A stretch of DNA of 64,000 nt from assembly GCF_013315695.1 (NCBI RefSeq), contig NZ_CP054353.1. The stretch is one strand, 5' to 3'. This document shows positions 27,540 through 29,236 of this stretch, piece after piece (position 1 is the first letter of the stretch; every line of letters starts with the position of its first letter). The stretch is from Escherichia coli. Its GTDB lineage: Bacteria > Pseudomonadota > Gammaproteobacteria > Enterobacterales > Enterobacteriaceae. Below the pieces are notes generated by a model. The model ran no database searches. It was given only the letters and a program-made list of their open reading frames with translations, and was not told where the DNA came from. The position numbers and the translations under genes are program-made.

Positions 27540-29236
27540 ATGAAATCCCCCGCACCTTCTCGCCCGCAAAAAATGGCGTTAATTCCAGCCTGCATCTTTT
27601 TGTGTTTCGCTGCGCTATCGGTGCAGGCAGAAGAAACATCGGTAACACCACAACCGCCTGATATTTTATTAGGGCCGCTGTTTAATGATGTGCAAAACGC
27701 CAAACTTTTTCCGGACCAAAAAACCTTTGCCGATGCCGTGCCGAACAGCGATCCGCTGATGATCCTTGCTGATTATCGGATGCAGCAAAACCAGAGCGGA
27801 TTTGATCTACGCCATTTCGTTAACGTCAATTTCACCCTGCCGAAAGAGGGCGAGAAATATGTTCCGCCAGAGGGGCAATCACTGCGCGAACATATTGACG
27901 GACTTTGGCCGGTATTAACGCGTTCTACCGAAAATACCGAAAAATGGGATTCTCTGTTACCGCTGCCGGAACCTTATGTCGTGCCGGGCGGACGTTTTCG
28001 CGAGGTATATTACTGGGACAGTTACTTCACCATGTTAGGGCTTGCCGAAAGCGGTCACTGGGATAAAGTCGCGGATATGGTGGCCAATTTTGCTCATGAA
28101 ATAGACACTTACGGTCATATTCCCAACGGCAACCGCAGTTACTATTTAAGCCGCTCGCAGCCGCCCTTCTTTGCCCTGATGGTAGAGTTACTGGCGCAGC
28201 ATGAAGGCGATGCCGCGTTGAAACAATACCTGCCGCAAATGCAAAAAGAATATGCTTACTGGATGGACGGTGTTGAAAACCTGCAAGCCGGACAACAGGA
28301 AAAACGCGTTGTCAAACTTCAGGATGGTACCCTTCTCAACCGCTACTGGGACGATCGCGATACGCCACGACCAGAGTCATGGGTGGAAGATATTGCCACC
28401 GCCAAAAGCAATCCGAATCGACCTGCCACTGAAATTTACCGCGACCTGCGCTCTGCCGCTGCGTCTGGCTGGGATTTCAGCTCGCGCTGGATGGACAATC
28501 CGCAGCAGTTAAATACCTTACGCACCACCAGCATCGTACCGGTCGATCTGAACAGCCTGATGTTTAAAATGGAAAAAATCCTCGCCCGCGCCAGCAAAGC
28601 TGCCGGAGATAACGCGATGGCAAACCAGTACGAAACGCTGGCGAATGCCCGTCAAAAAGGGATCGAAAAATACCTGTGGAACGATCAACAAGGCTGGTAT
28701 GCCGATTACGACCTGAAAAGTCATAAAGTGCGCAATCAGTTAACCGCGGCCGCCCTGTTCCCGCTGTACGTCAATGCGGCAGCGAAAGATCGCGCCAGCA
28801 AAATGGCGACGGCGACGAAAACACATCTGCTGCAACCCGGCGGCCTGAACACCACGTCGGTGAAAAGTGGACAACAATGGGATGCGCCAAACGGCTGGGC
28901 ACCGTTGCAGTGGGTCGCGACAGAAGGATTACAAAACTACGGGCAAAAAGAGGTGGCGATGGACATTAGCTGGCACTTCCTGACCAATGTTCAGCACACC
29001 TATGACCGGGAGAAAAAGCTGGTGGAAAAATATGATGTCAGCGCCACCGGAACGGGGGGCGGGGTGGCGAATATCCATTACAGGATGGCTTTGGCTGGAC
29101 CAATGGCGTGACGCTGAAAATGCTGGATTTGATCTGCCCGAAAGAGCAACCGTGTGACAATGTTCCGGCGACGCGTCCACTCAGTGAATCAACAACACAA
29201 CCGCTAAAACAAAAAGAGGCGGAACCTACGCCTTAA
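27540..29236 (+). pseudogene. treA: Periplasmic trehalase TreA, disrupted by -1 frameshift in G-run near 29055-29064
   Basis: GH37 trehalase in frame up to ...[12 protein letters not shown], then reading [15 protein letters not shown] (stop 29109-29111); the trehalase-like C-terminus [33 protein letters not shown]... continues in another frame to TAA at 29234-29236. Confidence 0.8.

Follow-up and report, generated by a model that had tools for sequence, protein, structure and literature searches.

A single-base deletion, apparently inherited, truncates the periplasmic trehalase gene treA in one Escherichia coli clone

The treA gene of the Escherichia coli chromosome analysed here is broken near its 3' end, which raises the questions of whether a base was genuinely lost, which base this was and whether the shortened product could still serve as a periplasmic trehalase. 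The gene was studied within a 64,000-nucleotide stretch of DNA, hereafter the window, whose gene order is narK-narXL ... dhaR-dhaKLM-treA-IS1-iron ABC transporter ... minCDE (Table 1). Read from the ATG at 27540, treA encodes trehalase through Gly508 (29061–29063), followed by 15 wrong residues and a TGA at 29109–29111, while the frame one base back carries the authentic TreA C-terminus and ends with a TAA at 29234–29236. The two frames and both stops had been described in a previous sequence-only reading of this DNA and were confirmed by direct reading. The stranded region comprises a conserved block, the last helix and a disordered tail of the protein.

Insertion of one base after 29062, either C or G, resulted in a protein of 565 aa that equals WP_000841737.1, the TreA of strains MS 21-1 and LR-28. 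The break in the frame is not a chance arrangement, given that all 57 stranded codons agree exactly with the C-terminus of TreA and that the protein, once repaired, shows roughly 99% identity to 2JF4, the E. coli trehalase of known structure. In fact, the gene has what defines a pseudogene: compared with intact orthologues its frame is broken, and repair of a single base gives the full protein. The identity of roughly 99% to E. coli K-12 TreA (Tre37A, GH37; 2JF4, 2JG0, 2JJB, 2WYN) extends over residues 31–565, and the two copies are alike in signal peptide, motifs, Asp312 and Glu496 and the dhaKLM-treA neighbourhood. Unlike K-12 TreA, the window copy is frameshifted after Gly508 and has 15 unrelated residues in place of residues 509–565. 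The cytoplasmic GH37 paralogue TreF resembles TreA in fold and motifs, and the NCBIfam TreF model is matched at 619–668 bits; TreF differs in having no signal peptide and in being encoded at a different locus, outside the window.

Table 1. Positions of treA and its parts in the window.
Feature	Coordinates	Strand	Basis or remark
treA pseudogene, whole (periplasmic alpha,alpha-trehalase, GH37)	27540..29236	+	ATG to original stop; 100% identical to the AF3 and MSB1_4I pseudogenes
TreA signal peptide, intact, residues 1-30	27540..27629	+	direct reading; mature chain 2jf4_A begins at residue 31 (EET...)
ORF actually open in treA, 523 codons + TGA, 508 authentic residues	27540..29111	+	frame translation
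Deletion junction, codons 508/509, one C of ancestral GGC GGC GGT gone	29062..29063	+	DNA alignment with intact L003 and L006
Out-of-frame tail, 15 residues then premature TGA (29109-29111)	29064..29111	+	translation
Authentic C-terminal codons left stranded, residues 510-565 of intact TreA	29066..29236	+	frame one base back
G6 run + C (G_GGG_GGC), same in intact alleles	29054..29060	+	formally a -1 slippery heptamer; possible site of +1G pseudo-reversion, giving G508R

The lost base was identified by alignment with intact alleles. These read ACG GGG GGC GGC GGT GGC GAA where the window reads ACG GGG GGC GG- GGT GGC GAA, with a single gap in the alignment. In the two closest intact alleles, those of MS 21-1 and LR-28, the site is ACGGGGGGCGGCGGTGGC and its counterpart in the window is ACGGGGGGCGG-GGTGGC, with GGCGGCGGT of both strains appearing in the window as GGCGG-GGT. 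The deletion allele has the string GGCGGGGT at the site, within 29040–29080. Alignment to intact trehalases had earlier been proposed as a check of the break, and it shows one single-base gap relative to MS 21-1 and LR-28, whose repair gives the protein of those strains.

The base missing by this alignment, between 29062 and 29063, is a C that belonged to the second codon of the glycine pair GGC GGC; the G4 run at 29061–29064 arose through the deletion and was not its substrate. The sequence-only reading had placed a GGGGG run at about 29060–29064 and attributed the frameshift to loss of a G from it. Such a run is absent, positions 29054–29069 being GGGGGG C GGGG T GG C G, and the only homopolymer that was there beforehand, the G6 at 29054–29059, is unchanged in the window. 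A hypothetical G5 allele (GGCGGGGGTGGC, a 41-mer) had 0 matches among 5,426 complete E. coli genomes, and a G5 ancestor that lost a homopolymer base was rejected since none of these genomes has G5 and the ancestral base is C. With the mechanism corrected to the loss of a C instead of a miscounted G run, the locus shows that a homopolymer-like run seen in a pseudogene may have been generated by the mutation instead of having caused it.

A sequencing or assembly artefact, in which a base was miscounted in a G-rich stretch and the real gene is intact, was considered as an explanation for the gap. The site does sit in the G-rich string GGGGGGCGGGG, and G-rich homopolymer contexts are error-prone on some platforms; the base lost is however a C between Gs and no member of a homopolymer. 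Recurrence of the deletion speaks against an artefact as well. Positions 27537–29236 were compared by megablast with the 5,426 complete E. coli genomes, 5,323 of which have treA. The match was exactly 1,700 bp long in four genomes (AF3, MSB1_4I, AF14 and AF10), and the next-best matches, MS 21-1 and LR-28, spanned 1,701 bp with treA intact. A junction 40-mer, centred on the junction so that every 28-base seed crosses it, matched these four of the 5,426 genomes only, while the intact 41-mer matched 5,127, meaning that a low-complexity filter was not hiding matches. PGAP calls treA a 'frameshifted' pseudogene in 4/4 of the carriers, and the deletion in these RefSeq entries (AC9VVF_RS07290 in AF3, JMX41_RS10775 in MSB1_4I, AC9VS1_RS19865 in AF14 and AC9VSY_RS20070 in AF10) is identical to that of the window. 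AF3, AF10 and AF14 originate from the UK and MSB1_4I from Australia, that is from at least two independent sources, and three of the four genomes derive from blood cultures. Over 64 kb, BLAST alignment of the window gave 16 substitutions and one indel relative to AF3 and 11 substitutions and the same indel relative to MSB1_4I. The three are on this account independent genomes, and the candidate explanation that the window is simply a copy of AF3 or MSB1_4I was ruled out.

The exact 523-aa product was furthermore found on 419 contigs, in 795 index blocks, of a collection of 15 billion proteins (NCBI, JGI/IMG, ENA, Logan), where one of its records is named 'periplasmic trehalase [Escherichia coli KTE143]'. 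Eight carrier loci were fetched, including Broad KTE scaffolds, the 5.16-Mb NCTC-series contig of GCA_900448625.1 and a metagenome scaffold, and all eight have the identical deletion in a treA that is otherwise identical. The carrier assemblies presumably stem from different platforms (Illumina, PacBio, ONT hybrids). The deletion occurs together with the downstream IS1 in AF3, MSB1_4I, the window and several KTE scaffolds, and without it in AF10, AF14, L011 and L016. Since carriers exist both with and without the element, the deletion is older than the IS1 insertion. The treA copies of AF3 and MSB1_4I are 100% identical to the window over 1,700 bp and have the IS1 in common with it, while AF10 and AF14 (L005 and L004) differ from the window in having no IS1 and an extra G->A at 28805 in treA, a nonsynonymous change (M422I) on the frameshifted background.

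The identical deletion in four complete genomes and eight further loci, its product on 419 contigs and its nesting with the IS1 insertion and the SNP at 28805 together indicate that the treA deletion is an inherited mutation and not a random error. An artefact retains virtually no probability in light of these observations. Out of the two options previously left side by side, an inactivating mutation or a sequencing error, it is the genuine mutation that is upheld and the error that falls away.

The IS1 is a complete, IS1A-like element of 768 bp (29497–30264; InsA and InsB ORFs at 29552–30249) with a target duplication of 8–9 bp, CAAATTTT(G), in the flanks at 29489–29496 and 30265–30272. It separates treA from the substrate-binding gene of the iron ABC transporter (30342–31364), is absent from AF10, AF14, L011, L016, MS 21-1 and LR-28, and could affect expression of the downstream transporter operon. 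In MS 21-1 (L003), the strain whose intact treA is closest, an internal stop makes a pseudogene of the adjacent substrate-binding gene for the iron ABC transporter (5031–6053). A different neighbourhood was observed in L018 (GCA_964044285.1, CAXJQR010000054.1, 1909–4072), where phage genes (tail-tip, Lom-like and tail-fibre) come after a frameshifted treA at the contig start; replacement of the iron transporter beside treA in this locus reflects either a prophage insertion or a contig misjoin.

Several other genes in the window are disrupted or differ between the window and its relatives. The gene for the catalytic subunit of DNA polymerase V, umuC (51186–52454, - strand), has an internal stop at codon 371 that results from an SNP at 51344. 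This stop is common to the window and MSB1_4I (PGAP 'internal stop'), while AF3 has C and not A at 51344 and an intact gene, and umuC is thus a second young pseudogene in the window. A gene for a leucine-rich-repeat domain protein (42085–43521, +) is intact in the window and MSB1_4I and carries a nonsense mutation in AF3 (C->T, 42484), which is another strain-level gene inactivation within the clone. At roughly 8145–9164 two Ldr-family type I toxin genes lie in a tandem repeat of approximately 535 bp whose copies are 96–98% identical. Six or seven of the substitutions, and the only 1-bp indel, that separate the window from AF3 and MSB1_4I fall at 8352–8501 in this repeat, a cluster that points to gene conversion between the copies or to assembly differences related to the repeat. 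The remnant of an autotransporter beta-barrel gene lacking its N-terminus (59743–60087, - strand) and that of a small hypothetical gene (41400–41537) are both partial pseudogenes in AF3 and MSB1_4I.

The nearest named relatives of the window at treA are IAI39, CE10 and SMS-3-5. Between 24537 and 29497 the window shows three differences from intact MS 21-1, namely SNPs in dhaK and dhaM and the treA deletion, and over the promoter and RBS region of treA (27222–27539) the two sequences are the same. As the upstream region is unchanged, the truncated product is probably still transcribed and translated. The pseudogene is young: its coding sequence departs from the nearest intact allele by the deletion alone, secondary lesions are absent and the upstream region is unchanged. 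The lack of secondary decay together with intact expression signals would fit a very recent neutral loss and is also compatible with a product that is still made. RefSeq already flags the identical allele as frameshifted, and the case is one of ordinary clone-specific inactivation. A literature search on the frameshifted treA allele or its lineage and on strains MSB1_4I and KTE143 found nothing relevant. Sporadic truncation of treA is not unique to this clone; other shortened TreA products in public E. coli assemblies include P0015 (401 aa) and P0016 (497 aa), some of which may be contig-end fragments.

A product that is still made could in principle be a shortened functional variant, with the 523-aa TreA folding and keeping useful activity, in which case treA would not be a pseudogene. 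The truncated product retains roughly 90% of the TreA protein, including the signal peptide. Signature motif 1 (PGGRFxExYxWDxY) is present in the 523-aa ORF, motif 2 (QWDxPxGWAP) lies upstream of the frameshift, and so do both Asp312 in motif 4 (SGWDFSSRW) and Glu496 in motif 5 (EKYD; LVEKYDV), the motifs being as defined in PMC10969515. Asp312 and Glu496 are the catalytic acid and base according to the statement in PMC6007452 that cites Gibson et al. 2007. The catalytic base of Tre37A is given as 'Glu469' in PMC7411730, while PMC6007452, PMC9450901 and the sequence itself (E496 in EKYD) have Glu496; 'Glu469' is probably a typographical error. The NCBIfam TreA model NF009774 scores the truncated ORF at 1143.9, far over its cutoff of 560, and is matched over profile positions 1–514 of 569 (1–568 in the intact allele). 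The allele is furthermore common and shows no further decay, as a functional variant might.

What the frameshift takes away argues against retained function. The Pfam Trehalase domain (PF01204) is matched by residues 55–509 of the truncated product over model positions 1–487 of 512 with 552.5 bits, ending 25 positions before the model end, as compared to 1–511 and 600.6 bits for the intact protein. Lost from the product are the second half of the glycine-rich loop after the catalytic Glu, the block G509–V524 and helix 519–532, and fifteen foreign residues are added in their place. The frame shifts after Gly508, and the conserved GGGGEY motif is destroyed just as the sequence-only reading had stated. 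The translated product consequently has neither the full-length profile match nor the GGGGEY region and conserved block of a complete catalytic domain.

Conservation of the lost segment was evaluated in distant homologues. A word-indexed homologue search returned only Citrobacter and E. coli relatives at 81–99% identity, too close for conservation to be judged. Instead, 1.84 billion cluster representatives were searched exhaustively with phmmer and the best 150 matches at 35–60% identity were taken, 135 of them full-length-like. Homology of these 150 to TreA almost always reaches query residue 525–535 in phmmer coordinates; in the MAFFT alignment, tails were placed past query residue 535 in many representatives, and the '>535' class is uninformative on true protein ends. 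Residues 509–524 rank among the best conserved of the family, with 80–90% of the 135 representatives keeping them. In MAFFT counts out of 135 these were G510 110, E511 107, Y512 116, Q515 111, G517 120, F518 112, G519 118, W520 121, T521 119, N522 117, G523 114 and V524 116, and G517, G519, W520, T521, N522 and V524 were conserved at 90% or more in an 80-sequence alignment. Only 2 of the 150 representatives end at query residues 480–524, and both are fragments (208 and 450 aa). Functional orthologues that naturally end at the same position, which the earlier reading had named as a finding that would overturn it, were accordingly not encountered among the 150 apart from these fragments.

An AlphaFold2 model computed on the alignment (pLDDT 92.2, pTM 0.90) has a loop at roughly 500–518, a helix at 519–532 with a mean pLDDT of 97 over 521–530, and a low-confidence tail from about 541 with pLDDT of roughly 50. 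According to a review (PMC10969515), bacterial trehalases have an (alpha/alpha)6 barrel and five conserved motifs, and motif 5 (EK[Y/F]D), in which the catalytic Glu lies, is the site of a 'lid loop' of possibly crucial importance in recognising the substrate. Based on the loop at 500–518 in the model and the position of the lid loop at motif 5, the frameshift falls inside the lid loop and removes the rest of it together with the last ordered helix. Conservation and the secondary-structure read-out suggest that helix 519–532 is one of the twelve barrel helices and that residues 509–524 contact the substrate. With the near-invariant 16-residue block G509–V524 and the last confident helix 519–532 gone, TreA activity has very likely been lost in the carrier clone, as judged from sequence and model. 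A functional shortened variant is in light of this regarded as quite improbable.

Loss of activity would nonetheless be incomplete if expression were leaky or switchable, be it by -1 ribosomal frameshifting on G_GGG_GGC, by transcriptional slippage on the G6 run or by frequent +1G reversion in the G6 or G4 run in the manner of phase variation. Full-length TreA, either wild type or G508R, would then be restored. The heptamer at 29054–29060 has the formal pattern X_XXY_YYZ, and ribosomes slipping by -1 on it would make full-length TreA carrying G508R. Reversion by +1G would yield the wild-type protein if it occurred in the G4 run, and a protein changed by G508R only if it occurred in the G6 run. 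The RNA downstream of the heptamer however folds no better than shuffled sequence (z = +0.65), on which ground programmed frameshifting was rejected, and the heptamer is shared by all intact treA alleles, to which slippage would be detrimental. G5 revertants number 0 among the 5,426 complete genomes, and the run lengths, only G6 and G4, are constant in all fetched carrier loci. Runs of 4–6 Gs are also shorter than known contingency or transcriptional-slippage tracts. The locus hence has neither the variable tract of a contingency locus nor the stimulatory RNA structure of a programmed frameshift, and restoration of TreA by any of these routes is given a very slim chance.

The reading that we favour, and hold to be highly probable, is that one E. 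coli clone genuinely lost a single base of treA and has passed the deletion on vertically; its TreA fragment would be inactive and the clone would be left with no periplasmic trehalase. In this mechanism a C was lost from the tandem GGC GGC between 29062 and 29063, and translation shifts past Gly508 and stops 15 codons on to give a 523-residue precursor. The exported fragment would fail to complete the alpha-toroid barrel and would probably be misfolded, degraded or catalytically dead.

In E. coli, periplasmic trehalose is hydrolysed by TreA, which is induced by osmotic stress, while TreB and TreC serve at low osmolarity (PMC11228248). Based on published treA mutants, periplasmic trehalose would no longer be cleaved to glucose in the clone, trehalose would be unusable at high osmolarity and leaked trehalose would not be recycled, while uptake at low osmolarity via TreB/TreC would be unaffected. 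Engineered treA nulls of the extraintestinal strain BEN2908/MT78 (Pavanelo 2018; Klemberg 2024, PMC11228248) have lost periplasmic trehalase in an extraintestinal background, as is expected here. The BEN2908 nulls show decreased type 1 fimbriae, decreased bladder colonisation and increased tolerance to 0.6 M urea, and still grow on trehalose, albeit slowly (PMC11228248). These mutants are complete laboratory deletions in another strain, whereas the lesion in the window is a natural C-terminal frameshift known from sequence.

It is conceivable, if unlikely, that the frameshift is an adaptive loss in a human-associated clone that includes bloodstream isolates, and not neutral decay. If so, increased periplasmic trehalose would raise urea and osmotic tolerance and alter type 1 fimbriation. 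This would also explain that the truncated allele, on 419 contigs, is sampled approximately twice as often as the otherwise identical intact sister allele on 197; sampling bias accounts for these numbers equally well.

Taken alone, the inherited deletion matters little, as it merely adds to the recent gene inactivations of E. coli that are specific to a clone. It does provide a clean single-base marker for the sublineage, and the phenotype it predicts is the absence of the osmotically induced periplasmic trehalase. As a natural null allele, which it very likely is, in blood-culture isolates, it would offer a comparison set for the engineered ExPEC treA mutants (PMC11228248).
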